From: Minisyncoccota bacterium
Lineage (GTDB): Bacteria > Patescibacteriota > Minisyncoccia > Phycocordibacterales > UBA2100
Reading direction: 5' to 3'
Assembly: GCA_043780835.1 (NCBI GenBank)
Contig: JAYWCB010000005.1
Span: forward strand, 125,945 to 189,944
DNA: 64,000 nt
Shown here: positions 3,981 through 27,890 of the stretch, piece by piece
Layout: every line of letters begins with the position of its first letter
How positions within the stretch are numbered: position 1 is the stretch's first letter
Program-made: the position numbers and the translations under genes
Notes under the pieces: model-generated
What the model was told of the DNA's origin: nothing
What the model saw: the letters and a program-made list of their open reading frames with translations, nothing else
Database searches by the model: none

Positions 3981-4091
3981 CCATCAATGATAATTGGCGT
4001 GGGTAAGTTTAATATGAAGCATTTCAACATGGGCAGACAGCGAAATGGAATTCATGCGCCTGAAAAGTTCCCAAAGCTGATCAGAATAAAA

Positions 4092-7082: not shown

Positions 7083-7128
7083 ATGTGCGATGCGTGATTA
7101 TTAAATTAGAAGTTAAGATGAAATAACT

Positions 7129-13930: not shown

Positions 13931-13963
13931 TATGGCAAATTACTCGCAAAGAATTCTTAAAAT

Positions 13964-16543
13964 ATGAATACCGAAAAACTTACAGAACGCTCGCGAGAGG
14001 CACTAGAGAGAGCGCTTGATATCGCACACAGCGCGCGGCATTCGAGCATTGAACCGATGCATCTCCTTGCCGCTCTTCTTGAGCAGAACGATACGGTGGT
14101 TCGCCCTCTTATTGAAAGTCTGAAAATTGATGTTGAGGGACTCCGCGATACGGTAGCAGCAGCACTTAGTCACTTGCCCATTCTCCAACACGACACGTCG
14201 CCGAGGCTCTCGCCCGAATTACAGCAGGTGCTAGAAAAAAGCGTTACAGAAGCTGGGGCACTTTCGGACAGCTATGTAAGCACCGAACATCTGCTCCTTG
14301 CAATTCTCGACGTTGCAAGCAATACAAAGGTGATTTTGAACGAACTTGGTGCGCGATACGCAGATATTAAGAGCAATCTTCCGAAAGTCCGCGGCGCGGG
14401 CAACGTACATGATCCAAATCCTGAAACAAAATATAATGTATTAAAAAAATACGGACAGGATTTTACAGAACTCGCTCGTCAGGGAAAACTCGATCCAGTC
14501 ATCGGGCGAGATGACGAGATCCGTCGCGTGATGCAGGTGCTTTCACGCCGCCGCAAGAACAATCCGGTCCTTATCGGAGAACCCGGCGTTGGTAAGACGG
14601 CAATTGTCGAGGGGCTGGCGCAACGGATAGTTTCGGGAGACGTACCTGATTCGCTCAAGAATAAGCAGCTACTTGGCCTTGAGATCGCATCGCTGCTTGC
14701 TGGCGCAAAGTTTCGTGGAGAGTTTGAGGAGCGTCTACAGGCGGTGCTCAAGGAGGTGGAGAAAGCGGAAGGAAGCATCATCTTGTTTGTCGACGAATTG
14801 CACACGATTGTTGGCGCTGGAAAAGCGGACGGCGCGGTCGATGCAGCAAACATGCTCAAGCCACTTCTTGCACGCGGGAAACTTCATATGATCGGCGCAA
14901 CAACCTTGAACGAATATCGCCAATACATCGAAAAAGACCAGGCGCTTGAGCGAAGGTTCCAGCCAGTATTCGTCGGGGAGCCGTCTATAGAAGACACTAT
15001 CGCAATATTGCGGGGTCTCAAGGAGAAATACGAAGTGCATCACGGCGTAAAGATTACGGACGAGGCCCTCGTAGCCGCCGCACGGCTCTCTGAGCGGTAC
15101 ATCACCGAGCGATTCCTGCCGGACAAAGCGGTAGATCTTATAGACGAAGCAACGTCAACGCTTAAGATGGAAATTGAGACCATGCCTATTGATCTTGATG
15201 CGATGCATCGCAAGATCTTGAAGTTTCAGATAGAAAAGGAGGCGCTCAAGAAGGAAAAGGGCGCCGAGAGCAAAAGCCGACTCCAAGAGGTCGAAAAAGG
15301 CATCGCGTCACTCAAAGAAGAATTCGACGGGAAAAAGGTTCGATGGGAAAAGCAGCGGGAGCTTGTAAGGAAACTTCGAGCACTTTCAAAAGACATCGAC
15401 GAGTTACGAATACAAATGGAGCGGGCGGAACGCTCCGGCGATCTCTCCCGCGCGGCCGAGATCCAATACGCTACGCTTCCCGAAAAGCAGAAGGCGATCA
15501 AGAATGTAGAGAAAGAAATTAGCGCTATTCCGGAAGCAGAGCGCTTGGTCCGCGAAGAAGTAACCGAAGAAGATATTGCTCGCATGGTGGCACGCTGGAC
15601 AGGGATACCTGTTTCGAAACTTTTAGAAACCGAATCGCACAAATTGGCTCACCTCGAGGAAGAGCTCTCGAAGCGCGTGGTGGGACAGGAAAAAGCGCTG
15701 TCCGCAGTGGCGCGCGCGATCCGTCGCGCACGAGCTGGCCTCAAATCGAAAGGTCACCCTATCGGCTCATTCCTATTTCTCGGCCCTACGGGCGTGGGAA
15801 AGACTGAATTATCACGAGCGCTCGCGGAAATTCTTTTTGATAACGAAGACGCGGTCGTTCGGATAGACATGAGTGAATATATGGAACGTCACTCTGTGTC
15901 CCGGCTCATCGGAGCTCCGCCCGGGTATGTCGGATATGAAGAAGGAGGTCAGCTTACCGAGCCGATACGACGACGTCCCTATGCGGTCATACTTATCGAT
16001 GAAATTGAAAAGGCACATCCCGATGTCTTCAACGTCCTCTTGCAGGTATTGGATGCGGGCAGACTCACCGATGGTCAGGGTCGTACCGTCAATTTCACAA
16101 ACACGCTTATTATCATGACCTCCAATCTGGGAAGCGAGTTGCTGCTCGAAGAGAAAAACGGAAAAGACGTTGAACGCGATGTAATGGCCATTGTCCGAAA
16201 AAATTTCAGACCGGAGTTCTTAAATCGCATCGATGAGATCGTTTTCTTCAACGCTCTCGACAAAGCGGTACTGAAAGAAATCGTCACACTTCAAGTCAGC
16301 GAGCTTCTCCGGCTGCTTCTGGAAGAAAAGAGAATCATCCTTGATGCAGATAGCTCCGTGTACGACCTGTTACTCAAAAAAGGATACGACCCGGCATTTG
16401 GGGCTCGTCCGCTCAAGCGAGCCATACAAACGGAACTCATGGACACGCTTGCTATGGCGATCATTGATGGTTCTATCGCCGAAGGTGATCGGGTCAAGGC
16501 GACGGTGGATAAGGGGGGTGAAATTATCTTCAAGAAAAAATAA
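13964..16543 (+). CDS. clpB: ATP-dependent chaperone ClpB
   Basis: 859 aa, two AAA+ modules (GEPGVGKT; GPTGVGKT), coiled-coil middle domain, ClpB N-domain. Confidence 0.9.
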
Positions 16544-16545
16544 TA

Positions 16546-16958
16546 TGGATACGTTTCTAACCCAAAAACAACAGATCGTGGTACGAGGACTTCTTGAAGA
16601 TTCCGGCGAAATTCTGATTACTGTAGACCAAAGATATGCACCATCATATTTAGAGTATTACAACCTACCGGGAGGAGTGGTTCCATTCGGTCGCGAACCT
16701 GCCGAAGTTCTTCAAGATATCTTTTTTGAACAAACGCATGTTCGCGTAAAGGTAGATGCACCGCTGCGCACCATAAACAGGATCCTTGATCGTGGTAGCA
16801 GCCAGATACTTGAGATCATTTACCGTGTGGAGAAACAGGAAATTCAGAGCGTTGCATCGCAAAAGTCGCAATGTCTTTGGGTACAGATTGATGAGAGAGG
16901 ATATTTCTTGTCCAGCTGTATTTCAGAGACGCTCAGTGACTTCAGAAAAGAAAAGTAA
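16546..16958 (+). CDS. NUDIX-fold-like protein with degenerate Nudix box
   Basis: Starts right after clpB stop; LPGGVVPFGREPAEVLQDIFFEQT resembles the Nudix box but lacks REx2EE glutamates; table ORF 16341.. is an over-extended start inside clpB. Confidence 0.4.
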
Positions 16959-16974
16959 GCCGAAATAGTATTCT

Positions 16975-17724
16975 ATGGATCCTTCAATGATAATGACAAA
17001 TACGAATAAAAGCGGTTCGTTTTTGGACACCGCGCTTGTCATTTGGTTTATTCTTACTGCGATCTCGGTGGTCTACGTTGCATGGGATGCGTATCACAAT
17101 AATCCCGAGTTGAAAGTAATGCGTGTTGGATGGATTCTCGTAACCGCATACACAGGAGTCATCGGTGCCGCCTTGTATGTGCTGTCTTGCAAACCGCCTA
17201 AGGTTAGTGAGCACGAGAAATTTATTGCACCTGTATGGAAACAGTCGCTTGGTTCCACAATTCATTGCATGGCAGGAGATGCGACTGGAATCATAGTTGC
17301 GGCAGTCATTACGGTGGCGCTGGGGCTACCAATGTATCTCGATGTAGTCTCAGAGTACTTTTTTGGGTTCGCCTTTGGCCTGCTTATCTTCCAAGCGTTG
17401 TTTATGCAAAAAATGCTTGGTGGCAGTTACGTCGCAGCAGTAAAGAAATCTTTTATGCCCGAATGGCTCTCCATGAATGCAGTCATGGCAGGCATGATAC
17501 CCGTGATGGTTATTCTCATGAGTTCGGACATGAGAGCAATGGAGGCAACGGACATCAGGTTTTGGGGTGTGATGTCTTTGGCGACCTTGGTTGGACTTGT
17601 CATCGCGTACCCCATCAATTGGTGGCTCGTAGCCAATAAGCTAAAGCATGGCATGGGAACAGAAGCAGTGATCGGCAAAGGAGGAGAAAAGCAGAGTGTA
17701 AATCAAAGTGGCATGCAAATGTAA
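16975..17724 (+). CDS. DUF4396-like membrane protein
   Basis: Multi-TM with GSTIHCMAGDATG motif; sits in copper gene array. Confidence 0.45.
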   Translation: MDPSMIMTNTNKSGSFLDTALVIWFILTAISVVYVAWDAYHNNPELKVMRVGWILVTAYTGVIGAALYVLSCKPPKVSEHEKFIAPVWKQSLGSTIHCMAGDATGIIVAAVITVALGLPMYLDVVSEYFFGFAFGLLIFQALFMQKMLGGSYVAAVKKSFMPEWLSMNAVMAGMIPVMVILMSSDMRAMEATDIRFWGVMSLATLVGLVIAYPINWWLVANKLKHGMGTEAVIGKGGEKQSVNQSGMQM

Positions 17725-17753
17725 CTTATAAATTAATAAATATAGATAAGAAT

Positions 17754-17981
17754 ATGAAAAAAAACGAAACAATGAACTCGCTAGCAAGCAAAACTGAAGC
17801 TGCATTCGACAAGGCTTTTATCGTGGCAATGACGGCGCACCACAACGAAGCAATTGCAATGGCTAAAATTGCGGAGAAGAAAAGTAAACGCAAGGAAATA
17901 CTAAAACTTGCAAAAAATATTATTACAGCTCAGTCGAAGGAAAATGCACAAATGAAAGTATGGAAATCTGAGTGGAAATAG
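17754..17981 (+). CDS. DUF305-like small protein (paralog of 2312..2536)
   Basis: FDKAFIVAMTAHHNEAIAMA...MKVWKSEWK; immediately upstream of multicopper oxidase. Confidence 0.55.
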   Translation: MKKNETMNSLASKTEAAFDKAFIVAMTAHHNEAIAMAKIAEKKSKRKEILKLAKNIITAQSKENAQMKVWKSEWK

Positions 17982-17991
17982 TCTGCTAAAG

Positions 17992-19677
17992 ATGGCGAGA
18001 AAAATGAAACGTAATATGAAAAACAAAGCAATGAAAATGAAAAAAGGAAATGTGACGAGGGCGCAGCTCATGGCGGTGACGGTGCTATCTCTCGCAGCGC
18101 TCACTATCGGCGTATTCATCTCTGGAATCTTTGGCAACTTCTCCATGCGTCCAGGTGACATGAGCGGCACTCAACGGGGTCCTTTTTCGCAATCTACTAC
18201 AGGTCTTAGAGAGGCAACCTCTTCTGAAGTGGTTGAGCTAAAAAATGGCTACACCTACAGTCTCACCGCATCTATCGTGAAAAAAGTAATCGGTGAGACA
18301 GCAGTAAAAATGCTCGCATATAACGGCATGATCCCGGGACCGCTGCTAAAGATTCCTCAAGGTGCGGAAATTACGGTGAATTTCAAAAACGAGACTGATG
18401 TTCCAACCACACTTCACTCTCACGGTATCCGCTTGGAAAATGCCAATGATGGTACGCCTCCGATAACGCAAAAGGAGGTACCGCCAGGCGGCTCTTTTAC
18501 GTACAAGATCAAATTCCCCGATGCTGGGATGTACTGGTACCATCCGCATGTACGCGAAGATTATGCACAAGAACTCGGCCTCTACGGAAATTATTTAGTG
18601 ACGCCGGCGAGCCCGAACTATTGGAATCCTGTCAATCGCGAAATGCCCCTCATTCTTGATGATATTTTAATTGAAAATGGTGCAATTGCCGCTTTCGATA
18701 GAAAAACAGCAGATCGCACGCTTATGGGCCGGTATGGAAATACCTTTCTAATCAATGGCGACGATCGCTACAGTCTGCAAGCAAAAACAGGAGAAGTGAT
18801 CCGCTTTTATGTCACGAACACTGCTAATGCCAGGCCATTTAACTTCGCTATATCGGGAGCAAAAATAAAACTCGTCGGAAGCGATAGTGGTGCATATGAA
18901 AAAGACCAGTGGATCGACGCCGTAACGCTGGGACCATCAGAGCGTGCCGTAGTAGAAGTACTATTCGATAAAGCTGGAACATATGCGATTCAAAACAAGA
19001 CACCGGATATAACGAATCAACTTGGCACCGTGATTGTCTCAGGAAGTCCGATCACCCCATCGTATGCACGCTCCTTTGCAACCCTTGCGACTCACATAGA
19101 TGTTGTTAAAAGCATCGACCACTTCCGAGCGGATTTCAGCAAACTGCCGGACAAGCAACTCAAGCTAACTGTGGACTTAAAGGGCGCTATGTCGAGCATG
19201 ATGAACAGCGGAAACAGCATGGCCGGGATGGATATGAGTGGAGGCTCGATGGCGATGGGGGCGCCAAAAGACGGCATCGAATGGGACGACACGAGCGGAG
19301 GTATGGGACAGATGAATCAGATGTCGAATGCAGATACCGTTGCGTGGAAAATAGTTGATACGGGAACTGGTAAGGAAAATATGAACATCGATTGGAACTT
19401 TAAAGTCGGTGACAAAGTAAAAATACGAATCACGAATGACCCGAACTCACCGCATCCGATGCAACACCCCATACACTTCCATGGCCAACGATTTTTGGTA
19501 CTTGATCGCAATGGTGTCGAACAAACGGATCTCGTATGGAAAGACACGGTACTTGTTCCTTCAGGTCAGTATGTCGATATTCTCCTTGATGCGTCCAACC
19601 CTGGCACATGGATGGCGCACTGTCACATCGCAGAGCACCTTGAGGCGGGCATGATGTTTAGCTTTACGGTCAAATAA
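17992..19677 (+). CDS. multicopper oxidase (CueO/laccase-like) with Met-rich segment
   Basis: HSHGIRL, WYHPH, HPIHFHG, HCHIAEHLEAGMM copper-site motifs; Met-rich MSSMMNSGNSMAGMDMSGGSMAMG insert; N-terminal signal/TM. Confidence 0.85.
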   Translation: MARKMKRNMKNKAMKMKKGNVTRAQLMAVTVLSLAALTIGVFISGIFGNFSMRPGDMSGTQRGPFSQSTTGLREATSSEVVELKNGYTYSLTASIVKKVIGETAVKMLAYNGMIPGPLLKIPQGAEITVNFKNETDVPTTLHSHGIRLENANDGTPPITQKEVPPGGSFTYKIKFPDAGMYWYHPHVREDYAQELGLYGNYLVTPASPNYWNPVNREMPLILDDILIENGAIAAFDRKTADRTLMGRYGNTFLINGDDRYSLQAKTGEVIRFYVTNTANARPFNFAISGAKIKLVGSDSGAYEKDQWIDAVTLGPSERAVVEVLFDKAGTYAIQNKTPDITNQLGTVIVSGSPITPSYARSFATLATHIDVVKSIDHFRADFSKLPDKQLKLTVDLKGAMSSMMNSGNSMAGMDMSGGSMAMGAPKDGIEWDDTSGGMGQMNQMSNADTVAWKIVDTGTGKENMNIDWNFKVGDKVKIRITNDPNSPHPMQHPIHFHGQRFLVLDRNGVEQTDLVWKDTVLVPSGQYVDILLDASNPGTWMAHCHIAEHLEAGMMFSFTVK

Positions 19678-19680
19678 TGT

Positions 19681-20328
19681 ATGTGTTTCTCTGCGACAGC
19701 AAGTTTCGTAGCTGGAGGGGCGCTCAGTGCGGCGGGAGTTTTGACGATTGCGCAGGTGAAGAAGAAATCCGAACTACCCTTTGCCAGTATTCCGCTTTTG
19801 TTCGGAATCCAGCAGGCTATTGAAGGAGTGGTGTGGGTTTCTTTTGGTTCCCCAATTTTGAATGCCATAGCCACGTACGGATTCTCTTTGTTTTCACATG
19901 TCCTCTGGCCGATACTTATTCCTGTTTCGGTTTTGTTGATGGAGACAGATGAGACTCGTCGGAAAATTCTGTGGGGCTTTTCAGGCATCGGCATCGCTGT
20001 CGGATTATATCTTCTGTATTTCATCGTCACCGAGCCGATTACATCGCAGATTGTAAATAACAGCATCGCGTATAATTCTCCTCATCTTTTCTTGTATCCG
20101 ATGCTTGCACTGTATCTGGCGGCTACATGTGTCAGCTGTTTCTTTTCCAGCCATAGATTTATAAAAGTATTCGGAGTTTTCGCACTCATATCTGCGTTTA
20201 TTGCAGCATGGTTTTTTAGTGAGACATTTCTATCCGTGTGGTGCTTCTTCGCAGCAATTCTGAGCGTACTAGTCTTCTGGCACATCAAAAGAAAATCTGT
20301 TGCCGTAAGGTTAATCAAAACAGGTTAG
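19681..20328 (+). CDS. hypothetical polytopic membrane protein
   Basis: Starts 4 nt after MCO stop; 6 predicted TM. Confidence 0.4.
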   Translation: MCFSATASFVAGGALSAAGVLTIAQVKKKSELPFASIPLLFGIQQAIEGVVWVSFGSPILNAIATYGFSLFSHVLWPILIPVSVLLMETDETRRKILWGFSGIGIAVGLYLLYFIVTEPITSQIVNNSIAYNSPHLFLYPMLALYLAATCVSCFFSSHRFIKVFGVFALISAFIAAWFFSETFLSVWCFFAAILSVLVFWHIKRKSVAVRLIKTG

Positions 20329-20362
20329 TTATCAGTTCATTTAATAAATAAAAGTAAAAATT

Positions 20363-20584
20363 ATGAAACTATCAAAAGTAATGCACGTAGTTAGTGTTGT
20401 TGTGGGGGTTGTTGGAGTAGGTATGTTTGTTGGTGCAATTCGGATCGGGTCGAACAAAATGGTATATGGGATCACAAAGATGAACGCACTTGCGTGCGTT
20501 GCCATCCTCATTCTAATCGCTACGTGGCTTCAGATTGCGACGATCCATCACATGATGCTTGAGAAGAAAGGAGAGATTGTCTAG
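20363..20584 (+). CDS. small hypothetical membrane protein (73 aa)
   Basis: Two hydrophobic helices; weak. Confidence 0.3.
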   Translation: MKLSKVMHVVSVVVGVVGVGMFVGAIRIGSNKMVYGITKMNALACVAILILIATWLQIATIHHMMLEKKGEIV

Positions 20585-20595
20585 AATTTGTACCC

Positions 20596-20961
20596 ATGGA
20601 CATCGGCAATTTGCTCAAGCTAGCGATTCCTCTTTTTGTCGCCCATGCGATAGAAGAGTATAGTACCGGCCTTCTTGGCCTCGACCCTCTCTTCCGTTCC
20701 ATAACCGCGCACCATTTGCCCACAATTACTCTATACATTGTCGAACAGTTACTATTGGTAGCAATTTTGCTGTGGACAATTTATCAACCGAAGCGATGGC
20801 TTCTGGTTTTTATCGGACTACTCTTTATTTTCGAAGTGAGTCATGTCATTCCTGCGTTAGCCCAAACGTCGTATTACCCAGGGCTTGTAACAGCGATACT
20901 ATTGCTTCTTTTGGGACTTTTTTATTGGAGGGCCGTAATGATACGATTTACCAGGAGGTAA
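20596..20961 (+). CDS. HXXEE-domain membrane protein
   Basis: VAHAIEEY (H-x-x-E-E) motif in first helix, 4 TM. Confidence 0.55.
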   Translation: MDIGNLLKLAIPLFVAHAIEEYSTGLLGLDPLFRSITAHHLPTITLYIVEQLLLVAILLWTIYQPKRWLLVFIGLLFIFEVSHVIPALAQTSYYPGLVTAILLLLLGLFYWRAVMIRFTRR

Positions 20962-20998
20962 GGTAATCTTGTCTTGCGCTTCTTAATACATACAAACC

Positions 20999-21517
20999 AT
21001 GAATACAAAAGTCATTATTGGTCTCGCGGCGGTCGTTCTTATTACGGGTGGTGCGTACTATTTTTCAACGACAAAAACGGGCGACTCTTCGGGCATGAAT
21101 ATGACACCCGAGCAGAGGGCGGCCATGCATCATTCTTCCGGTAATGCTTCCAATACATCGCCGATGCTCGCTGAGCCGAATGCTGTCGTAGTGACTGATC
21201 AGCGACCAGGTAAGGTGGTAACAGGCACCGTGTATCTTGCAGCTCCCGGATATCTCGTTATCCACGACGAGTCAGGCACCGTGCTTGGATCAAGTGCACT
21301 TCTCCCCGCAGGACAAAGTAATAACGTCAAAGTAGTGCTCTCACGTGCAAGCAAAAACGACGAGAAGCTCATGGCCATGCTGCACTCAGATACAGACGGC
21401 AACGGTTCGTTCGACGCATCGAAGGATGTGCCCGTCCAGAGCAAGCTTGGCGGAGCCATTCAGGGCTCTTTCCAGGTGTCATCAAGAGCGGGCGCAAACA
21501 CCCCGGTGAGCATCTAA
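20999..21517 (+). CDS. membrane-anchored periplasmic hypothetical protein with Met/His motif
   Basis: N-terminal TM, MTPEQRAAMHHSSG; beta-rich remainder. Confidence 0.4.
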   Translation: MNTKVIIGLAAVVLITGGAYYFSTTKTGDSSGMNMTPEQRAAMHHSSGNASNTSPMLAEPNAVVVTDQRPGKVVTGTVYLAAPGYLVIHDESGTVLGSSALLPAGQSNNVKVVLSRASKNDEKLMAMLHSDTDGNGSFDASKDVPVQSKLGGAIQGSFQVSSRAGANTPVSI

Positions 21518-21566
21518 CTTCTGGCGAAACACTGCTAAATATTCCATCTTAATTTTAGAACTTGAT

Positions 21567-22292
21567 ATGGTCATCCTCATTGCAATTGCTGCATTCTGTT
21601 CAACACTTTTGGGAGGCTGGTTTGCGCTTCGCCTCAAAGATCGTTTACATCTCATTCTTGGATTCAGTGCGGGAGCTGTGATAGGCGTCGCTTTCTTCGA
21701 CCTTATACCGGAAGCGATTGATCTTGTGGGAAAAAGCAATGGAACGGCATTCGCCACTTCCATTATCGCTTTTGGTTTTGCCCTATATCTGGCGCTCGAC
21801 AGACTCTTTGTTTTGCATCGACATCACGAAGACGACACGCACGAGCACGCACACTCCGAGCGCGGTGTATGGGGTGCGAGTACGCTTTCACTGCATAGTT
21901 TTCTTGATGGAGTTGGTATCGGTCTTGCTTTCAAAATTTCTCCTGCGATCGGTCTCGTCGTTGCTGCGGCTGTTTTAGCACATGATTTCTCCGACGGCAT
22001 CAATACGGTAAATATGATTCTGAAGAATGGTGGCAAACGAAGACGTGCTTTGCGCTGGCTTATTATTGATGCTCTTGCCCCCGTAGCAGGTGTTCTCATC
22101 ACCCTTCTGTTTTCTGTTACAGAAGGAAGTCTGGGCATTCTTATCGCGCTTTTCTCTGGTTTCTTTCTGTATATAGGAGCAAGCGATCTTCTACCAGAAA
22201 GCCACCATGCACATCCTAAGCGCTGGACGACCATCTCAACAATTGCTGGCATGGGATTTATCTACACCATCATTAAATTAGCCGGAGCCTGA
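21567..22292 (+). CDS. zupT: ZIP-family metal (Zn/Fe) transporter (ZupT-like)
   Basis: HEDDTHEHAHSE His-rich loop, HSFLDGVGIG and HDFSDGINT signature helices. Confidence 0.8.
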   Translation: MVILIAIAAFCSTLLGGWFALRLKDRLHLILGFSAGAVIGVAFFDLIPEAIDLVGKSNGTAFATSIIAFGFALYLALDRLFVLHRHHEDDTHEHAHSERGVWGASTLSLHSFLDGVGIGLAFKISPAIGLVVAAAVLAHDFSDGINTVNMILKNGGKRRRALRWLIIDALAPVAGVLITLLFSVTEGSLGILIALFSGFFLYIGASDLLPESHHAHPKRWTTISTIAGMGFIYTIIKLAGA

Positions 22293-22317
22293 TACGTATA
22301 TCTCCTGATACGTCTAC

Positions 22318-23454
22318 CTAATGACGATGGGACGAGTGCCCGCTGCTCGAGGGTTTTGAATTGCCTGAAAGCATATATGTCGCGATCAGCGTTGTGATTG
22401 GAACGCCGAGGACAAGTCCGATCGAACCGATAAGAATACGCACGATCTCGGTTGCGAAGATCTCGTTATTGATCGCATAGCCGACACCGTACGTCGCGTG
22501 TTGTACGAGGAGCAACAAAGGCAGTGCTGCTCCTACATACGCAATGGCAAGTGTATTCACGAGAGCGCCAATGTGTTCTCGACCGATTCGAATTGCGCGT
22601 TCATATACCTGAATACGAGTCATGTGCACACCAGCTCTGAATAATTCTTCTACCGCTATCGCTTGTCCGATCGCGATATCGTACAAAACACCCAGAAGGC
22701 CGATCATGATCCCGCCATAGAGAAGACCGACGAGATCTATTGAACCGTTCGTGCTAAAGGTGAGATATCGCGATTCTTCGTTGTTATATCCGGTCAACTG
22801 CGCCGCATGCACTACGTAATAAGCACCAAGACCTGTTATCAATACGGTACCAATCATGCCCAAAACGGCGGCTGTTGTGGTGCGGTTAAAACCGTGCGTA
22901 ATATATGAACCGGCAACGATAATAAGAGATGAGACGCCAATACTTACAAAGATTGGCGAATAACCGTGGAGCATACCTGGTAGGAGTACGTAGAAAATCA
23001 AAATAAGACTTCCACACAAACTCGCGAATCCTCGGATGCCCTGAGTGCCACCAAAAATGATTATGAGGACAAGGAACGCGGCGGCAAGCCCCCAGAGCAC
23101 ATTGAGTCGGTACGGATCGGATACCGAGTAGTAATCCACTGGATCCACAGAGCTCGTTGTATGGCGAAGATAAAATATATTTCCTACAGACATTTGAATG
23201 TATTCGTTATCGAATGTGACGACCGATCCAGCATCAGGTCCATCAAGAACTTTTACCCTGAGAGTTTGCATCTTCGTAGACTTGTCTGTTCCCAGAAGGG
23301 CCGTTTCCTTTTGATTCGTCACTTCAAGCACCTGTGCCTTTTGAATTGTTACCGTGTCCTGTACAAGTTCCGACTGAGCGTATGCAAAAATGGGACTCAA
23401 TAATTGAAGCGCCAAAATGAGGAATGTAATATTTTTCGCCACTTTCATAACCAC
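22318..23454 (-). CDS. YibE/F-family-like membrane protein
   Basis: Signal peptide + ~120-aa extracytoplasmic domain + 6-7 TM; family call from memory. Confidence 0.45.
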   Translation of the reverse strand: MVMKVAKNITFLILALQLLSPIFAYAQSELVQDTVTIQKAQVLEVTNQKETALLGTDKSTKMQTLRVKVLDGPDAGSVVTFDNEYIQMSVGNIFYLRHTTSSVDPVDYYSVSDPYRLNVLWGLAAAFLVLIIIFGGTQGIRGFASLCGSLILIFYVLLPGMLHGYSPIFVSIGVSSLIIVAGSYITHGFNRTTTAAVLGMIGTVLITGLGAYYVVHAAQLTGYNNEESRYLTFSTNGSIDLVGLLYGGIMIGLLGVLYDIAIGQAIAVEELFRAGVHMTRIQVYERAIRIGREHIGALVNTLAIAYVGAALPLLLLVQHATYGVGYAINNEIFATEIVRILIGSIGLVLGVPITTLIATYMLSGNSKPSSSGHSSHRH

Positions 23455-23645
23455 TAGTATACGCTCAACGTTTGGTTTCCATGGCTCTTATTCTAGTATA
23501 TTTGCCTGTTGGTAAGTCCCTTCGCAAAACCCTGAAATCTGCTAGGGTGCAAATTGATAGCCTAAAGTGCTATCATGTTCTTGCAGACAATTAAATAAAA
23601 GCCGACCTAACCCCTTTGGAATTTCCAGAGGATATGGTTGCAAAC

Positions 23646-23797
23646 CCCGCTAGAGATCAAAGGACTCCTCGTCAGAGTCACTCTAGCGGGTTATATCGGG
23701 AAACCGGTATAGGTGGGAGCCGAAAGGTTCTCATCGCGATGGCGAGGGGCCTTTTGATTACCTGAAGGTTCCCACCACTAAAATCCCGCTAGATTTT
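23646..23797 (+). promoter_or_regulatory. structured 5' leader with mutually exclusive helices (possible cis-regulatory RNA) upstream of 23798 gene
   Basis: CCCGCTAGAG (23646-55) and CCCGCTAGA (23785-93, followed by TTTT and the ATG) can both pair with CTCTAGCGGG (23681-90); internal GAAA-tetraloop hairpin and GGTGGGA..GGTTCCCACC helix. Confidence 0.3.
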
Positions 23798-24394
23798 ATG
23801 GCTACGAAGTTTCTCTACTCCGCTACCGGAGTAGCTGTTCTCGGTTTTGTTTTATTGCTAGTCATCGGCCTGAATACGCCTCAGCCAATTAAACAGGCTC
23901 AGCAAAGCGCACTCATGCAAAATCCTGTAGTTGTCGCAACCTCGTCTGCTCCGGACAATCAGAAAATTGCTGCGATTCTTTCAGCAAGCGTTACATATTA
24001 CACGCAGTTATTTGTCACGGGTAAAGCAGCACTTGGCACCGCGCAGTATGCAGACGCGAACGCGGGACTAAAAGCATTTAATGATCCGAATTCTGCAGCT
24101 GTTCACTTCGGTACGTTCAGAACAAACACGTGCCTCAAAAATGATCCTGGGGCGAATGCGATAAGCGCATACCAAGAGGCCGATAATTTATACACAGACT
24201 CCTCACCAGACGCTCTAAGTAAATGGAACGAAGACATCAACAATACGGCAAGCGATATCTGTCTCTGGGCTGCAGATGCAGTTGGCTGGCAAATCAAGGA
24301 AATATCAAGCGCCAAATTACATACCGATGAACAGAAGGTTTCTGAAGATATTGCCAAAGCAGAGGTAGACATTAAGCAGATACCGGCCAAGTAA
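23798..24394 (+). CDS. hypothetical secreted/membrane-anchored protein
   Basis: N-terminal TM/signal; Ala/Ser-rich; no domain recognised. Confidence 0.45.
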   Translation: MATKFLYSATGVAVLGFVLLLVIGLNTPQPIKQAQQSALMQNPVVVATSSAPDNQKIAAILSASVTYYTQLFVTGKAALGTAQYADANAGLKAFNDPNSAAVHFGTFRTNTCLKNDPGANAISAYQEADNLYTDSSPDALSKWNEDINNTASDICLWAADAVGWQIKEISSAKLHTDEQKVSEDIAKAEVDIKQIPAK

Positions 24395-24445: not shown

Positions 24446-24634
24446 ATGGCAATTCTCTCAAAACAAAGCGCTACAGAACTTCGCCGTATCATCAAGGAGG
24501 CTACAGGTCGCAACATTTCAGTCGGCGAAGCGTATGCCATCTGGCACTATCTTCTGAAACTACTACAGTTACTGTGGAGGATAGAAAAGAGACAAAAAAT
24601 CCAACCGCAATCAGATCAGTTGAGTCTTTTCTAG
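24446..24634 (+). CDS. small hypothetical ORF (62 aa) at edge of phage-derived segment
   Basis: ORF only; contains the ATAGAAAAGAG repeat. Confidence 0.2.
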   Translation: MAILSKQSATELRRIIKEATGRNISVGEAYAIWHYLLKLLQLLWRIEKRQKIQPQSDQLSLF

Positions 24635-26178
24635 AAAATACCAGGAATTCTCGAACGAACAGTAATTTCTGTATCGGGATCAATAATGTCATCCGGAAAC
24701 CGTCTCGGTGTACCGTACGATGTTGGACCACGCCAGGTGTCGCTACTACTGTATCCCATGAATTTTGTAAGATGAATGACGAGCATGGTGAGAGCGTCAC
24801 AGAGATCATCGTGATTCTCTAACCCAAAATTGACGGCTTGGTTAATGATCTCTTCGCATCCTCGATGGAATACTATCTGCCCATTTTGAATCAGTGCACC
24901 AATGCTCATAAGGCGCTGCTCCTTGCTTCCGTATATGTTGGGATAGAACTCAGATACCGGATAGCCTTGGTGATTGAGGTCTTGGAAGATATATACCTGC
25001 GCCTGCACTGCCTCTACAACGATTTGAGTTCTCAGGCCAGCAGCTCCCTTAGTCGATATTTCTTTTATCTTTTTAATAATATCTCCGAAGTCGAGTCGGT
25101 CGTTATAGTAGATGGGCGAGATATAAATCTTCGCCTTGTTGCCTGACCCATAGAGATGGCCATGCACGATCGCAGTAGGGTCAGTGCCTTCTTTGTTCTT
25201 CGTACCCGGATCAACGGCAGTCACAGACATCCGGTATCGGAGAACGGGATCATTTTTATCAGGGAGAACGTCGTAGTACGTAATCCAGTCGCGTTTGATG
25301 ATCTGGTCATCATCAGCGATCACTTGCAGCAGGTACTCGCGGAACCACGTCTTGTCATTACCAATGCGCTTACGTTCGGCTTCAATTTCTGCCATCGTCG
25401 GAAATTTACCTGGCCACATACTCTCGCCGTTGCGACCTATAAGCACATACTCTCGGTAGATGCCTGTAGTCATACCGTCGCCGATCTCTTGCTTGAGTCG
25501 CATGACAAGACAGTGTTCGTGTAAGACGTTCCCAATCACGATGAATCGTGTGCGTTTCGATCCGAGCGGCATAACCTCGCCTTTGAACCAGTTATATATC
25601 TTCTCTCGACCTTCTTTCGTACGTGCCGACTGAAGGTCCTCGGGGTCATCGATAATCACGAGATCTGGGCGATGTTGGAGATGCTTGATGCCTCGAATAG
25701 CCTCACTGACAGAGGCTACTGAGATACGTGCTCCAAGCTTAGTGAAGACTATGGTGGATGCGCCCCATGTGTCTGTTTCCTCCCGAAATGGCCCCAGCGT
25801 GCGCCGCAGAACCTCATTGTGCTCAAGAGCACCACGCAGGTTCATCATGTGCTGTTTTGCCTGGCTCTGGGTTTGAGCGACTATGAGCACGAACTTCTTT
25901 TGCTGGATACCCAAGATCGCCCACAGCACATACGAGAGTGTAAGCAGTGTACTTTTCGCACTGCCACGAAATGCGACAAGGCACAGTAGATTCCAGTCCG
26001 TCCGCTCGGTAAGTGCAAATATCTCATACTGGAACGGAGCTGTTTCGTACTCGACGTATTCTGCAAAGAAGATGTTGAAAAACCATAGGTGAGATCGTCG
26101 AGTCACGTAGCTTCGCACGAGTTTGTTCTTGCAGATCATTTCAAGAACGTCCTGCCGGAGTGTTTTATTGCTTTTCAT
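24631..26178 (-). CDS. phage terminase large subunit (Terminase_6-like ATPase + RNaseH-like nuclease)
   Basis: Deviant Walker A AFRGSAKST, Walker B LVIIDDPED, C-terminal nuclease Asp cluster (AVDPGTKNKEGTDPTAIV). Confidence 0.75.
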   Translation of the reverse strand: MKSNKTLRQDVLEMICKNKLVRSYVTRRSHLWFFNIFFAEYVEYETAPFQYEIFALTERTDWNLLCLVAFRGSAKSTLLTLSYVLWAILGIQQKKFVLIVAQTQSQAKQHMMNLRGALEHNEVLRRTLGPFREETDTWGASTIVFTKLGARISVASVSEAIRGIKHLQHRPDLVIIDDPEDLQSARTKEGREKIYNWFKGEVMPLGSKRTRFIVIGNVLHEHCLVMRLKQEIGDGMTTGIYREYVLIGRNGESMWPGKFPTMAEIEAERKRIGNDKTWFREYLLQVIADDDQIIKRDWITYYDVLPDKNDPVLRYRMSVTAVDPGTKNKEGTDPTAIVHGHLYGSGNKAKIYISPIYYNDRLDFGDIIKKIKEISTKGAAGLRTQIVVEAVQAQVYIFQDLNHQGYPVSEFYPNIYGSKEQRLMSIGALIQNGQIVFHRGCEEIINQAVNFGLENHDDLCDALTMLVIHLTKFMGYSSSDTWRGPTSYGTPRRFPDDIIDPDTEITVRSRIPGIF

Positions 26179-26614
26179 GGTCTTGTTTAAGTTGGCTTAG
26201 GCCTTCTTCCAAAACGAGCGATGAGAGCCGCAATGCTTCTTCTGCCGCAGCTTGCTCCTGTACGGTAAGGTCTTCGCGCGTATGGTGAATGTTTCCGCTT
26301 ATCTCCAGTTTCGATGAATACGCGGGGTGATGCGTCTTGAGCCACAGCGAAATGGCCGACATGTTTTTGTCTCGAATGGCAGATACTAAAAATCCTTCCG
26401 CGACATCATTTACTAGAAGTGACCCGTCGTAGATCGCTTCGTCCGCTGCCTTTGCGAATTCCGGATCTTCTTTGCGCCATCGATAATAGCTGGCGCGTCC
26501 GATGTTTGCTTTCGCGCATGCCATCTCGACGATAGGGGTGGACTTTAGATGTTCGAGTAGAGTTTGCTTGTCCCGGGCGACTCGTTTTTCAACTGCTGTT
26601 TGTTTCTGTTCCAT
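26165..26614 (-). CDS. terminase small-subunit-like HTH protein
   Basis: HTH segment IGRASYYRWRKEDPEFAKAADEAI typical of phage small terminase/HTH_23-like proteins; overlaps terL start by 14 nt. Confidence 0.5.
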   Translation of the reverse strand: MEQKQTAVEKRVARDKQTLLEHLKSTPIVEMACAKANIGRASYYRWRKEDPEFAKAADEAIYDGSLLVNDVAEGFLVSAIRDKNMSAISLWLKTHHPAYSSKLEISGNIHHTREDLTVQEQAAAEEALRLSSLVLEEGLSQLKQDHEKQ

Positions 26615-26615
26615 A

Positions 26616-27890
26616 TTATATTTTCTTCGCTTTGATACCCGTCAGTGCCTCGAAGCGGTTTTTGATGAGATCACAAAAGATCGGCTCTACCTCAACGAGA
26701 TATGCTGAGCGTTTGAGCTGTTCACAGGCCACCAATGTGCTTCCAGAGCCGCCGAACAAGTCCAATACAACATCGTTTACCTTTGAGCAGCGCTTCAGTG
26801 CCTTTTCGTGGAGCGTAGGTGGCTTTTCGGTTGGATGGGTGTATTGCTGTCCCGGCAGGCGTTTGACGAGCCAGATGTCGAGGAGGCTGAGAACATCTTC
26901 AATGAGGTCATTGCCGGTGCCGATTTCTTTATTCATTACTTCGGTAAGATTGTAATGATTCTTGGAAAGATAGGGCGATCCGCGAGTTCCATACACGCAT
27001 GGTTCGTACACCTTGTTGAATGCAACCTGAGGTACAACATTCTGATTATTTTTAATCCATAAACAGGTGCGCTTGTTCTCAATACCGAGCGAGTGATATA
27101 TGTCTTGAATCATTCCGACATAATTCTGGTCACACCAGTAGAAGTAGTGAGCGTCGCTCTTTGAAAAAGTAATAGCGTTTTGTATTGTCTTCTTTAGGAA
27201 TAGTTGGTATTCATCGAACGATTTATTGTCGTCTGTCTTGCCACCGTACTTTCCCTTAGTACCGACTCCCTTGTCGTAGCTGAGGTTTATATTAAAAGGT
27301 GGATCTGAATACGTGACATCCACCTTTGTATTGCCCAGAAGTTTTTTGAGAGACTCTGGATTAGTCGAGTCTGCGCAGATCAGACGGTGTCGCCCAAGCT
27401 GATACATTTCTCCTAGCTTCGTAACTGGTTTCTTTATCGCTGTGAGTGCCTCGTCCACGTCGAATGAGTCATCTTTTATTTCGAGTGCTTCATCCCAAAT
27501 GTTGTCGAGCTCCTCCGTGCTGAACCCGATGTCGGCAAGAAGGCTTGTATCGAACTCCCGTAGCTTCTCAATATCCCAGGCTCCGACATTTTTATTCAAT
27601 CGAATATTGAGTATCTTCTCTTTCTCAATATTAGGTATGTCGAGGAAGATCACAGGCACTTCTGTATACCCGAGGTCTTTTGCGATCTTGAGGCGAAAGT
27701 GACCCCCGATCACCGTGAACTTCCGCTTCGGTGCCTTGTTTACCAGAATCGGATCAACAAAACCATTCTGTGTGATGCTTTCTGTAAGTTGTGATATTGC
27801 CGAGGTATCCCACGTGCGCGGGTTATACGCAGCGGGCTTTAGAAGATTTATAGGTACGTACTCAATTTGGAGATTATGTAGTTTGGTCAT
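26616..27890 (-). CDS. ParB-like nuclease N-terminal domain fused to DNA N6-adenine/N4-cytosine methyltransferase
   Basis: N-terminal ParB/Srx motif (IIGGHFRLKIAKDLG), motif IV SDPPF then C-terminal motif I LDLFGGSGST (beta-class order). Confidence 0.75.
   Translation of the reverse strand: MTKLHNLQIEYVPINLLKPAAYNPRTWDTSAISQLTESITQNGFVDPILVNKAPKRKFTVIGGHFRLKIAKDLGYTEVPVIFLDIPNIEKEKILNIRLNKNVGAWDIEKLREFDTSLLADIGFSTEELDNIWDEALEIKDDSFDVDEALTAIKKPVTKLGEMYQLGRHRLICADSTNPESLKKLLGNTKVDVTYSDPPFNINLSYDKGVGTKGKYGGKTDDNKSFDEYQLFLKKTIQNAITFSKSDAHYFYWCDQNYVGMIQDIYHSLGIENKRTCLWIKNNQNVVPQVAFNKVYEPCVYGTRGSPYLSKNHYNLTEVMNKEIGTGNDLIEDVLSLLDIWLVKRLPGQQYTHPTEKPPTLHEKALKRCSKVNDVVLDLFGGSGSTLVACEQLKRSAYLVEVEPIFCDLIKNRFEALTGIKAKKI

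Follow-up and report, generated by a model that had tools for sequence, protein, structure and literature searches.

A LOOT RNA with an extended architecture as a candidate cis-acting leader of mobile-element genes in Patescibacteria

The window (i.e. the whole 64-kb stretch of DNA that was analysed) holds a structured intergenic region, a downstream ORF on the same strand and a convergent phage-type gene cassette. A cmscan search against Rfam assigns the region at 23604–23732 (+) to LOOT RNA (RF03000) with 73.0 bits against a gathering score of 46.4 and E = 8e-12 over the 64-kb window, and the match spans model positions 1–121 of 121. The region is a member of the LOOT family. The preliminary description of the locus had found no known family for it; the full-length match of 73 bits overturns that statement, and the individual families set aside there stay excluded, LOOT not being one of them. 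The LOOT motif originates from the comparative screen of Weinberg et al. 2017 (PMC5737381), also appears in the Rfam 14 paper (PMC7779021) among families derived from metagenomes and has the Rfam type 'Gene; sRNA'. It is one of many orphan structured RNAs from such screens. We found no published function for LOOT in the literature, and the supplement of the defining study may already mention some of the features described here. The LOOT core and the genes that follow it are:

23604–23732, + strand, LOOT core (RF03000; cmscan, all helices verified base by base)
23604–07/23636–39, + strand, P1 (base-by-base check)
23606–23637, + strand, 11-nt GAAA-tetraloop-receptor-like internal loop, CCUAAC (23606–11)/UAUGG (23633–37) (Rfam consensus and reference receptor)
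23613–20/23624–31, + strand, P1a hairpin, 8 bp (base-by-base check)
23638–45, + strand, J1/2, A-rich junction TTGCAAAC, as in LOOT
23646–55/23681–90, + strand, P2, CCCGCTAGAG/CTCTAGCGGG, 10 of 10 pairs (base-by-base check)
23663–67/23675–79, + strand, P2a, GACTC/GAGTC, enclosed by P2
23692–99/23704–11, + strand, P3, 8 of 8 pairs, GAAA loop 23700–03 (base-by-base check)
23715–21/23726–32, + strand, P4, 7 of 7 pairs, GAAA loop 23722–25 (base-by-base check)
23798–24394, + strand, downstream ORF, 198 aa, N-terminal signal sequence or membrane anchor (ORF and homologues behind LOOT)
24631–27890, − strand, convergent phage-type cassette (PHROGs matches)
24631–26178, − strand, terminase large subunit, TerL (phrog_38, 1e-78)
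26165–26614, − strand, TerS-like HTH protein (phrog_4044, 1e-8)
26616–27890, − strand, ParB-N6/N4 DNA methyltransferase (phrog_498, 1.6e-100)

A base-by-base check located every helix, repeat and palindrome listed in the preliminary description, including the perfect 10-bp P2 that encloses GACTC/GAGTC, the GAAA-tetraloop hairpin (23692–23711, i.e. P3) and two upstream palindromes, GATAGC (23556)/GCTATC (23569) and TGGAATTTCCA (23617); the last is the tip of the P1a hairpin of LOOT. The window shows the CCUAA/(C/U)AUGG loop around a hairpin, the long and variable P2 helix, the 8-bp P3 with GAAA and the GNRA-capped P4 that characterize LOOT, and its P4 departs from the Rfam consensus by a 3-nt linker and single-nucleotide insertions. 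The interval 23600–23800 folds at −86.7 kcal/mol compared with −58.1 ± 5.1 for dinucleotide shuffles (z = −5.6; none of 200 shuffles as good), and 23455–23800 has a z of −5.1 against shuffles.

The internal loop of P1 resembles the 11-nt receptor for GAAA tetraloops that occurs in group I introns, RNase P and some riboswitches. The canonical receptor reads CCUAAG_UAUGG (PMC11381326), and the window carries 10 of its 11 letters (CCUAAC/UAUGG) flanking a hairpin, together with the GAAA of P3 at 23700–03. CCUAA, CAUGG and the P3 GAAA stand in upper case in the Rfam consensus, which marks high conservation, and are its best-conserved letters. LOOT differs from the canonical receptor in having A or C rather than G at position 6, opposite C or U (position 1 of the 3′ strand). 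We propose that the GAAA loop of P3 may dock into the receptor-like loop of P1.

Relatives were collected by pattern scans, one of genome and one of metagenome collections, which gave at least 240 matches, at least 210 of them passing independent P2 and P3 pairing filters. At least 213 distinct LOOT sequences were gathered, nearly all from Patescibacteria (CPR) genomes and metagenomes, and LOOT scored above the gathering score in all 17 related loci tested. The search pattern demanded CCTAA, YATGG, AAA and GAAA, so the sample is biased to canonical LOOTs and the conservation of those letters rests on the Rfam consensus. A loose pattern had matched 121 times, mostly by chance (8 true LOOTs), and was refined before the genome and metagenome scans. 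A strict pattern with fixed P3–P4 spacing found no match in viral contigs, and blastn of the LOOT DNA against 50,697 deposited phage genomes found none either.

Downstream of the core, four further elements extend to the start codon of the ORF:

23656–23673, + strand, pseudoknot 5′ strand within the apical P2 loop (17 bp with 23741–58, duplex −27.8 kcal/mol; covariation)
23741–23758, + strand, 3′ tail GGCGAGGGGCCUUUUGAU, pseudoknot 3′ strand ending in a U-tract (covariation)
23767–23776, + strand, anti-tail GGUUCC(CACC), complementary to the tail at 23746–51 and, in the window locus only, also to 23712–21
23779–23793, + strand, A-rich flank TAAAAT and a copy of the P2 5′ strand, CCCGCTAGA (23785–93), a 9-bp perfect complement of the P2 3′ strand 23682–90

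The covariation that the preliminary description had proposed as a check is present in the pseudoknot. In an alignment (A2) of 100 non-redundant LOOTs from the matches listed, its 14 pairs are ∼90% paired and 12 of the 14 have changed on both sides, while controls with the partner slid by 1–3 columns give 35–53% for the whole tested structure. Many of the pseudoknot pairs are U–G, which shows selection at the RNA level. A 14-bp covarying pseudoknot thus very probably extends LOOT beyond the Rfam model; because the tail pairs in the pseudoknot and sits outside that model, the RNA would reach at least 23758. The pseudoknot 5′ strand overlaps the P2a hairpin, and the two pairings are mutually exclusive. 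Compared with the window, the Rfam model stops at P4 and lacks the tail and pseudoknot, the promoter, the leader and the downstream complementary segments; truncated in this way it misses the 14-bp covarying pseudoknot, and a correction would improve annotation and 3D modelling.

A U-tract (23752–55) follows the pseudoknot 3′ strand; 70 nt separate this strand from its upstream partner, and a terminator scan of 23600–23800 (+) found no canonical intrinsic terminator. As a counterpoint to a leader reading, the U-tract is conserved, and the RNA might end near 23758, as the sRNA label in Rfam implies.

The tail is also complementary to the sequence just behind it. Among the matches listed, its duplex with the next 38 nt has a mean energy of −14.4 kcal/mol, compared with −9.3 for shuffled sequences and −10.9 for sequences from other loci (p = 1.7e-11), and z is below −2 in 54% of these loci. 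The signal is weak when measured by the longest Watson–Crick run and clear in the energy-based test. The preliminary description had drawn a GGTGGGA..GGTTCCCACC helix here: GGTGGGAGCC (23712–21) can indeed pair over 10 bp with GGTTCCCACC (23767–76), but that helix is not conserved as such and competes with the conserved P4 and pseudoknot. What is conserved is the complementarity of 23767–72 to the tail.

The copy of the P2 5′ strand lies at −13 to −5, followed by TTTT and then the ATG at 23798. The 9-mer CCCGCTAGA occurs exactly twice in the 64-kb window, and the number of exact 9-nt complements to a given strand expected in a 270-nt interval is ∼0.001. We scored a copy wherever at least 8 contiguous Watson–Crick bases complementary to the P2 3′ strand lay 30–300 nt downstream. 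Among the matches listed, such a copy is found in 62 of 192 loci, compared with 1.3 expected from permutation of the P2 strands across loci and with 1 in an antisense control; the pairing of the P2 3′ strand with a segment before the start codon, which had been noticed in this single sequence, is therefore conserved. Among these listed loci, the 62 copies lie at −14 to −4, AAA(A/U) directly precedes the copy in 54 of the 62, and in ∼50 of the 62 an ORF of ≥40 aa begins with an ATG 1–6 nt behind it (mode 3–4). The copy changes along with the P2 sequence type (e.g. CCCGCTAGAG, CCGTCCAAAG and CGTAAGCCAC). Where P2 contains a G–U pair, the copy restores a Watson–Crick pair with the 3′ strand at five of six informative positions in the listed matches; the copy thus tracks complementarity to the P2 3′ strand rather than identity to the 5′ strand. 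Copies are local, with 59 within 300 nt, and the rest of the 1.47 Mb holds 7 (chance expectation 5.6), so that trans targets of the P2 3′ strand are not enriched across this sequence. In the window, the two nested folds differ by 4.5 kcal/mol (−85.6 with P2 and −81.1 with the alternative pairing). As a counterpoint to a switch, the copy is found in only one third of the listed loci; the rest need another platform, for which anti-tail relays are a tentative candidate.

Two further ideas about the start region were rejected. A Shine–Dalgarno (SD) sequence does not substitute for the copy in loci that lack it, since among the matches listed 5 of 62 loci with a copy and 18 of 130 without carry GGAG or GAGG plus a start codon. 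The A-rich flank of the copy does not act as a −10 box of the cargo gene itself, as TAnnnT adjoins the copy in only 3 of the 62 listed loci. That the window ORF lacks an SD, as first described, is true but without significance, because GGAG or GAGG lies upstream of only 3 of the 66 ORFs in the window.

We then compared the sequences upstream of LOOT, which contain:

23506–23549, + strand, conserved upstream module CTGTTGGTAAG..CTTCGCAA..CTGCTAGGGTG (recurrence upstream of LOOT; coordinates checked)
23556–23576, + strand, palindrome GATAGC (23556–61)/GCTATC (23569–74), whose arms covary between loci
23568–76, + strand, extended −10 element TGCTATCAT, the 3′ arm of the GATAGC palindrome (motif enrichment; putative promoter)
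23587–23597, + strand, 5′ leader motif ACAATTAAATA (ACAAYTNAATA), conserved among LOOT loci

Among the matches listed, the motif TGnTAnnnT peaks 21–50 nt upstream of CCTAA, with 90 occurrences in 200 loci compared with 0–5 per 10-nt bin elsewhere. A simple sigma-70 scan of the LOOT locus gave no −35/−10 pair, and the promoter at 23568–76 is for this reason a predicted one; transcription would start near 23583–85. ACAAYY stands 11–20 nt upstream of CCTAA in 114 of 200 listed loci, and the leader motif at 23587–23597 is probably the 5′ end of the RNA. The module TGTTGGTAAC..CTTCGCAAG..CTAAGCTAAGGTAC precedes LOOT in 23 of 210 listed loci, 17 of which have the start-site copy, and its instance in the window (23506–23549) may serve as a binding site for a regulator or as an upstream part of the promoter. 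Between LOOT and the ORF, neither TGnTAnnnT nor TAYMAT is enriched among the matches listed.

The genes behind LOOT are consistent in orientation and diverse in content. In the listed matches, the nearest downstream ORF is co-oriented in 157 of 185 loci, with a median start 77 nt after P3, while upstream genes are mixed in orientation (95 vs 81). The 150 downstream proteins of the matches listed fall into 102 clusters, and the top Pfam families among them have at most 5 members each and are unrelated; they include DNA methylases, nucleases, DUF4352, SHOCT, zinc ribbons and secreted proteins. This functional heterogeneity does not indicate a metabolite-specific riboswitch. The 198-aa protein in the window matches no family in Pfam, PHROGs or PADLOC, yet its homologues also follow LOOT in two other loci (L175 and L213), and the gene order around its ORF recurs on a public contig. 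We infer that this ORF is the regulated 'cargo' gene.

Homologues of TerL, TerS and the methyltransferase are present in 21, 40 and 49, respectively, of 209 LOOT loci among the matches listed, as counted in ∼2.8 kb of flank on each side of LOOT, and mostly in the same convergent layout. Serine integrase genes are also associated with LOOT loci. PADLOC detected no defence system among the LOOT neighbours beyond a type II methyltransferase.

In brief, the functional unit reaches beyond the Rfam model and comprises the putative promoter, the leader, P1–P4, the pseudoknot tail, the anti-tail and the start-site copy. Because the ORF is co-oriented and the putative promoter lies upstream of LOOT, with none after it, a cis-regulatory reading is favoured, and LOOT is fairly likely, judging from its sequence context, to be a cis leader rather than a free-standing sRNA. 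The first impression of a riboswitch- or attenuator-like architecture therefore holds as regards the co-oriented ORF, the promoter motif found only upstream and the conserved alternative pairing, but a metabolite-specific regulon is not indicated and no canonical terminator was found at the relevant place.

We suggest the following model. The whole unit would serve as 5′ untranslated leader to an accessory gene on the same strand. In the native fold, P2 and the pseudoknot would be closed and held by the contact between the P3 GAAA loop and the P1 receptor, which would leave the start region single-stranded and allow translation. When this fold is lost, the P2 3′ strand (23682–90) would pair with the copy (23785–93) and the tail with the anti-tail. 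The alternative fold, which is fully nested, would bury −13 to −5 and block initiation. It should be disfavoured unless the native fold is opened, because P2 is transcribed first, has a short loop and is stabilized by the pseudoknot. The trigger might be a ligand, Mg2+, decay of the 5′ end or a protein that the mobile element encodes. The leader would move together with various accessory genes of a mobile element of Patescibacteria, recognizable by its ParB-methylase/TerS/TerL cassette. On present evidence, the whole reading of LOOT as a cis-acting translational switch is evenly balanced, and the translational strand swap itself is a plausible mechanism that falls slightly short of an even prospect. 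More tentatively still, and with a probability below even, LOOT may be, rather than a free-standing sRNA, a portable 5′-leader riboregulator specific to mobile elements of Patescibacteria (CPR), sensing a signal through a fold based on the tetraloop–receptor contact and the pseudoknot and exchanging P2 and pseudoknot strands for downstream copies to gate translation of whichever accessory or defence gene is inserted behind it. The downstream genes are too varied to point to a ligand, and such variety is unusual behind a metabolite riboswitch.

If the switch reading is true, LOOT would be a cis-acting switch on a widespread mobile element of the CPR, in which gene regulation is almost unstudied and cultivation rare. 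The portable riboregulator would give this largely uncultured lineage a mechanistically defined class of regulatory RNA, and an orphan Rfam family a testable function. What was a bare motif now yields specific, cheap experiments. If the switch reading is wrong, the locus is one more instance of a catalogued RNA family.

Known systems share parts of this arrangement. The c4 RNA of phages P1 and P7 has the order a1b1–c4–a2b2, and the CI RNA of satellite phage P4 the order seqA–seqB–seqC (Rfam C4, RF01695). As in these RNAs, one LOOT strand is complementary to an upstream and a downstream repeat of the same transcript, the downstream repeat covering the ribosome-binding region: window positions 23682–90 are complementary to both 23646–54 and 23785–93. 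LOOT also resembles them in belonging to a mobile element and in having sequence 'types' that co-vary with their targets. The resemblance is in layout only: the C4 (RF01695) covariance model gave no match at its gathering score, nor at E ≤ 5 in 23300–24000. In contrast to c4 and CI, the complementary strand of LOOT is tied up in a stable helix, which belongs to a larger tertiary fold of four helices plus a pseudoknot, and neither RNase P processing nor trans-immunity is indicated.

Translational riboswitch platforms include the adenine add riboswitch and the SAM-II and preQ1-II pseudoknots, which hide the SD. LOOT is similar in that a helix strand and the start region would compete for one partner, in its probable location in the 5′ UTR and in the participation of a pseudoknot in the proposed switch. 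It differs in its incoherent regulon and in that the element to be occluded is not an SD but an exact copy of the other strand of a helix, present in only about one third of its members; it is not an SD because the window genome hardly uses one.

The IsrK RNA of the Salmonella Gifsy-1 prophage also heads accessory genes of a mobile element, and its alternative structures decide the translation of a downstream ORF; its short form activates its long form in trans (PMC4825925). Short (terminated) and long (read-through) isoforms are likewise possible for LOOT, to which IsrK is unrelated in sequence and fold.

An alternative to the cis leader is that LOOT is a discrete small RNA with its 3′ end at the pseudoknot and U-tract, acting as an antisense RNA on the start region of the adjacent gene, either in its own read-through transcript or in a related incoming element, with the P2 sequence 'types' as determinants of specificity or immunity. 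This agrees with the sRNA type in Rfam, with the G+C-rich pseudoknot strand and conserved U-run that resemble the 3′ half of a terminator, and with an order of upstream copy, complementary strand and start-site copy that is that of the P1 and P4 systems. The mobile-element context with integrase, ParB-methylase and terminase genes, the recurrence of discrete P2 types across different host lineages and the trans action of a prophage leader RNA on its own long isoform, as in IsrK, also fit, as does locus L198, which has a LOOT-less second target of identical sequence 3.2 kb away. However, the antisense strand is locked in the 10-bp helix of a conserved fold, whereas c4 and CI expose theirs in a loop; copies at a distance are otherwise at chance level, Rfam gives no match to C4 and the simple scan detected no terminator at the tail. 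Moreover, no promoter motif intervenes between LOOT and the ORF, and the ATG follows 15–40 nt after the tail in many loci, so the ORF must be read through from LOOT. We consider the discrete sRNA unlikely.

A classical ligand-binding riboswitch aptamer, e.g. for a nucleotide second messenger, with the strand swaps as its expression platform, could account for the compact conserved fold with its tetraloop–receptor module, pseudoknot and conserved junction nucleotides, for the 5′ UTR location and for mutually exclusive pairings that involve the start region. The c-di-GMP-I riboswitches offer a parallel: they have a tetraloop–receptor contact and control very diverse genes, phage genes included. 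For LOOT, however, the regulated genes share no pathway, the receptor module accounts for most of the conserved unpaired nucleotides and leaves little obvious pocket, and the switching strand occupies a central rather than a 3′-terminal place in the fold, all of which make an aptamer of this kind rather improbable.

A role in the mobile element itself (e.g. packaging, recombination, a ribozyme or an mRNA stabilizer), with the direct repeat as a DNA junction for cargo exchange, receives little credence from us. It would explain the tight association with ParB-methylase, TerS, TerL and serine integrase genes and the extremely diverse cargo behind an otherwise conserved leader. It would also fit locus L198, where a deletion lies exactly between the two direct repeats and the cargo gene is one that stands behind a full LOOT in L093. 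This deletion indicates that the repeats also act as DNA recombination substrates; L198 was spotted by eye, and no other 'empty' leader (P1, copy and ATG without the core) was found in the sampled loci. Yet the copy keeps Watson–Crick pairing with the P2 3′ strand where P2 has G–U, its distance from the ATG is fixed at 3–4 nt, repeats of 9–14 nt are too short for efficient homologous exchange, and the co-orientation of the ORF and the anti-tail would be left unexplained. Lastly, fortuitous or compositional palindromes without a functional RNA have a practically negligible probability: short repeats are generally frequent, and a 9-nt repeat in 350 nt is not rare alone, but the fold z-scores of −5.6 and −5.1, the Rfam E-value of 8e-12 and covariation in hundreds of relatives refute this explanation.

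Scanned against Rfam, the 64-kb window returned two matches, a distant tRNA-Leu and a LOOT RNA (RF03000) at 23604-23732 (+), the latter over the full model with 73 bits (gathering score 46.4, E = 8e-12). The preliminary description had named an Rfam hit to a known family as a refutation, and with this match the claim of a new RNA class is dropped: the structured RNA is real, but it adds one more member to a catalogued family and founds no new class. LOOT originates from the comparative screen of Weinberg et al. (2017) and is typed by Rfam as 'Gene; sRNA'. Among the papers searched, it appears only in Rfam papers and the CaCoFold paper, none of which assigns it a function. A script check of 23000-24300 found all previously listed elements in place, upstream palindromes included, and the region is indeed highly structured: 23600-23800 folds at -86.7 kcal/mol versus -58.1 +/- 5.1 for shuffles (z = -5.6), and 23455-23800 gives z = -5.1. 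The main features are as follows.

23568-76, + strand: putative extended -10 box TGCTATCAT, the 3' arm of the GATAGC/GCTATC palindrome
23587-97, + strand: ACAAYY-type leader motif ACAATTAAATA
P1a tip, + strand: TGGAATTTCCA, assigned by Rfam alignment
23646-55 / 23681-90, + strand: P2 helix CCCGCTAGAG / CTCTAGCGGG, perfect over 10 bp by script check
23663-67 / 23675-79, + strand: P2a, GACTC / GAGTC, an inner extension of P2 inside the 10-bp helix
23692-23711, + strand: P3, an 8-bp hairpin with a GAAA cap
P4, + strand: GGGAGCC-GAAA-GGTTCTC, assigned by Rfam alignment
23656-61/23753-58, 23662-63/23750-51 and 23665-73/23741-49, + strand: pseudoknot of 17 bp, checked base by base
23767-72 / 23746-51, + strand: tail/anti-tail pairing, GGUUCC / GGGGCC
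23785-93, + strand: start-site copy CCCGCTAGA of the P2 5' strand, then TTTT, then the ATG at 23798
24631-27890, - strand: cassette of ParB-N6/N4 DNA methyltransferase, TerS-like HTH protein and terminase large subunit

Relatives were sought in public collections with a degenerate pattern built from the Rfam consensus letters. Because the pattern fixes CCTAA, YATGG, AAA and the P3 GAAA, the conservation of these letters rests on the Rfam consensus and not on our sample. A loose pattern gave mostly chance matches in viral contigs, plus eight genuine LOOTs; a refined one gave at least 120 matches in species-representative genomes and at least 120 in metagenomes. Independent P2 and P3 pairing tests were passed by 210 of the 240 listed loci, leading to 213 distinct sequences, and all 17 loci tested score 66-93 bits with the Rfam LOOT model. 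The genome records among the matches listed are nearly all Patescibacteria (CPR), i.e. Saccharibacteria, Paceibacterota/Parcubacteria lineages, Microgenomates, Doudna-, Berkel-, Gracili- and Peregrinibacteria. Matches labelled Lutibacter and Promethearchaeota, and one of four labelled Gammaproteobacteria, failed the pairing filter. Three loci labelled 'uncultured Gammaproteobacteria' (L176, L177 and L192) and one labelled 'Pacearchaeota archaeon' (L197) are genuine LOOTs that pass all structural filters; their bins are probably mislabelled or chimeric, rather than evidence of true spread outside Patescibacteria. One Minisyncoccia MAG carries two LOOT loci on two contigs (L203 and L209), with identical P2 (CGTCGTAAAC) and downstream proteins that are DUF4352-like and homologous to each other, so a genome can hold more than one LOOT.

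The structure extends beyond the Rfam model. A tail (..CUGG..GGSGRGCUUUUG..; 23741-58 in the window) lies 3' of P4 in every relative and is complementary to the apical part of the P2 loop. In a MAFFT alignment of 100 non-redundant LOOTs, the 14 proposed pseudoknot pairs are ~90% paired and 12 of them show changes on both sides (e.g. CG 38 / GC 38 / AU 12 at one and GC 59 / AU 31 at another). Pairing falls to 35-53% when the partner is slid by 1-3 columns, a control computed for the whole tested structure. U-G pairs are common in the pseudoknot, which only makes sense at the RNA level, and the window duplex has an energy of -27.8 kcal/mol. The Rfam reference model, which stops at 23732 with the tail beyond it, is truncated at its 3' end. 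The P2a hairpin covaries too (UA 38 / CG 34 at one pair; alignment columns 73-76 with 4 nt from column 86), and it and the pseudoknot are mutually exclusive because they use the same nucleotides. The LOOT core may thus pass through or switch between two conformations, and this might bear on the numerous 'cross-covariations' that the CaCoFold paper (PMC7657543) describes for LOOT. The unpaired letters that LOOT conserves best, CCUAA(N) and (Y)AUGG on either side of P1a, correspond to the 11-nt receptor of GAAA tetraloops, CCUAAG_UAUGG (PMC11381326). The GAAA of P3 is conserved and the P4 loop is variable in the alignment (GAAA, GCAA, GUAA, UUCG); judging from established knowledge of the motif, the P3 loop would dock on P1.

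The most interesting part is the previously noted three-way pairing, including a strand that abuts the start codon: it is conserved and would give the orphan LOOT family a concrete, testable function. At each locus, the stretch from 30 to 300 nt past P3 was scanned for sequence able to form Watson-Crick pairs with the outer 10 nt of that locus's own P2 3' strand. Runs of at least 8 are present in 62 of the 192 listed loci, against an expectation of 1.3 from swapping P2 strands between loci and of 1 from the antisense strand. In 54 of these 62, AAA(A/U) stands ahead of the copy, as it does in the J1/2 junction, and in about 50 the ATG of an ORF comes 1-6 nt behind the copy (mode 3-4); the window fits exactly. 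Its 9-mer CCCGCTAGA occurs twice in the 64 kb and the complement once. The copy changes with P2 (CCCGCTAGAG, CCGTCCAAAG, CCTAGTAGAG, CGTAAGCCAC, CTCGCTACAA and others, each with its own match), and at five of six P2 G-U positions it departs from the 5' strand, restoring Watson-Crick pairing with the 3' strand. Copies are local (59 within 300 nt versus 7 elsewhere in 1.47 Mb, 5.6 expected). The alternative partners are statistically associated and co-vary. There is a second swap: the tail is much more complementary to the next 38 nt (-14.4 kcal/mol) than to shuffled (-9.3) or exchanged (-10.9) sequence (p = 1.7e-11), in loci with and without the copy. The longer GGTGGGA..GGTTCCCACC helix noted earlier, in which GGTGGGAGCC (23712-21) can pair with GGTTCCCACC (23767-76), is a locus-specific extension in conflict with P4.

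LOOT is placed like a leader. The nearest downstream ORF lies on the LOOT strand at 157 of 185 listed loci, starting at a median of 77 nt after P3, and the orientation of the upstream gene is mixed (95 versus 81). Across 200 listed loci, TGnTAnnnT is found 90 times in the interval 21-50 nt ahead of CCTAA, compared with 0-5 times per 10-nt bin in other positions, and ACAAYY lies 11-20 nt ahead of CCTAA in 114 of the 200. Since a strict sigma-70 scan found no -35/-10 pair at the window locus, a LOOT promoter is something we infer. No enrichment of a -10-like motif was found between LOOT and ORF at the listed loci, and in many the ATG is merely 15-40 nt after the tail. The ORF therefore most likely depends on the LOOT promoter. 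Given such dependence, LOOT is probably a 5' leader acting in cis on the ORF, not an independent gene.

The downstream proteins are very diverse (150 in 102 clusters at listed loci; e.g. N6/N4 DNA methylases, DUF4352, SHOCT, zinc ribbons, DUF5067, SNase, Mrr, VRR-NUC, T5orf172 and RadC) and look like accessory or defence cargo. The 198-aa protein of the window has a membrane anchor, matched no known family and has homologues behind LOOT in two other genomes. Among the other neighbours, genes for a ParB-N6/N4 methyltransferase, a TerS-like HTH protein, terminase and large serine recombinases are over-represented. Homologues of the window ParB-methylase, TerS and TerL occur at 49, 40 and 21 of 209 listed loci (~2.8 kb flank per side), mostly in the same convergent layout. 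Nine IMG/VR contigs with LOOT carry the same genes plus (large) serine integrases, with no structural genes among their top families; only the trio is common to them and the window, which contains no integrase although the cassette is present. LOOT therefore travels with a small integrative, phage-related CPR element; the cassette could be the signature of an integrative element in Patescibacteria that is satellite-like or degenerate. It stands beside LOOT in many CPR genomes and is also found at L012 1244-4344, L087 7750-11643 and L003 2419-5403, and no portal, capsid or tail genes adjoin it. To the left of LOOT, 11798-23454 is a metal-handling cluster (heavy-metal P-type ATPase, ClpB, multicopper oxidase, DUF6629, HXXEE, DUF7282, ZIP transporter and YibE/F). 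None of these genes recurs beside LOOT elsewhere (YibE/F in 0 of 209 listed loci), so LOOT sits where core genes give way to the mobile cassette.

We tentatively favour a cis-acting translational switch as the likeliest mechanism. LOOT would be co-transcribed with the ORF; in the native fold A (P1, P2, pseudoknot, P3 and P4) the start region would be free and initiation permitted, whereas in the fully nested fold B the P2 3' strand and the copy would enclose P3, P4 and a tail/anti-tail hairpin, burying the start region and blocking initiation. Some signal would shift the balance. Nested-only energies in the window are -85.6 kcal/mol for the P2 fold and -81.1 for the alternative, and the pseudoknot would add to fold A. 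Against a switch, P2 forms before the alternative pairing and is the stabler of the two, the copy is absent from two thirds of loci, and the U-tract 3' of the pseudoknot could be the RNA end. The main rival, a c4/CI/IsrK-like RNA terminating at this U-tract and pairing antisense with read-through or related transcripts, fits the three-part complementarity and the mobile-element context, but is unlikely, as its antisense strand is sequestered in a helix and distant targets are lacking. That the repeats of the P2 5' strand act at the DNA level is a less likely reading, for which L198 speaks: there, a LOOT-less leader fuses this strand straight to the AAT-ATG of the gene behind the complete LOOT of L093. 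Such a role, however, leaves the preference for complementarity and the fixed spacing to the ATG unexplained. A classical metabolite riboswitch is also less likely, given how heterogeneous the regulated genes are.

The LOOT-less leader of L198 (~6870-7215) lies 3.2 kb downstream of that locus's LOOT (3907-4010, in the orientation with LOOT on the + strand) and keeps the promoter module, the P1 receptor hairpin and J1/2 ahead of the P2 5' strand. It resembles the product of a deletion or recombination precisely between the two direct repeats, and the neighbouring LOOT might target it in trans.

Upstream of the LOOT promoter, a conserved module (TGTTGGTAAC .. CTTCGCAAG .. CTAAGCTAAGGTAC; 23506-23549) with no obvious hairpin and no Rfam match is shared with 23 other loci (e.g. 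L087, L143, L175, L199 and L230), 17 of which also have the start-site copy. In the palindrome at 23556-23576, the 5' arm covaries between loci with the extended -10 box arm (GATAGC/GCTATC, GTAGCA/TGCTAC, AATACCA/TGGTATT and GATAAC/GTTATC), with occasional G-T pairs. A terminator scan flags it on the + strand; it may serve as an operator covering the promoter, or else as an RNA hairpin in a transcript from upstream. Across the whole window, Shine-Dalgarno motifs are nearly absent (3 of 66 predicted ORFs) and several ORFs have a TATAAT-like box just 6-10 nt before the ATG (e.g. 60649, 62386 (-), 47324 (-) and 50220), a pattern that points to frequent leaderless mRNAs in this organism.
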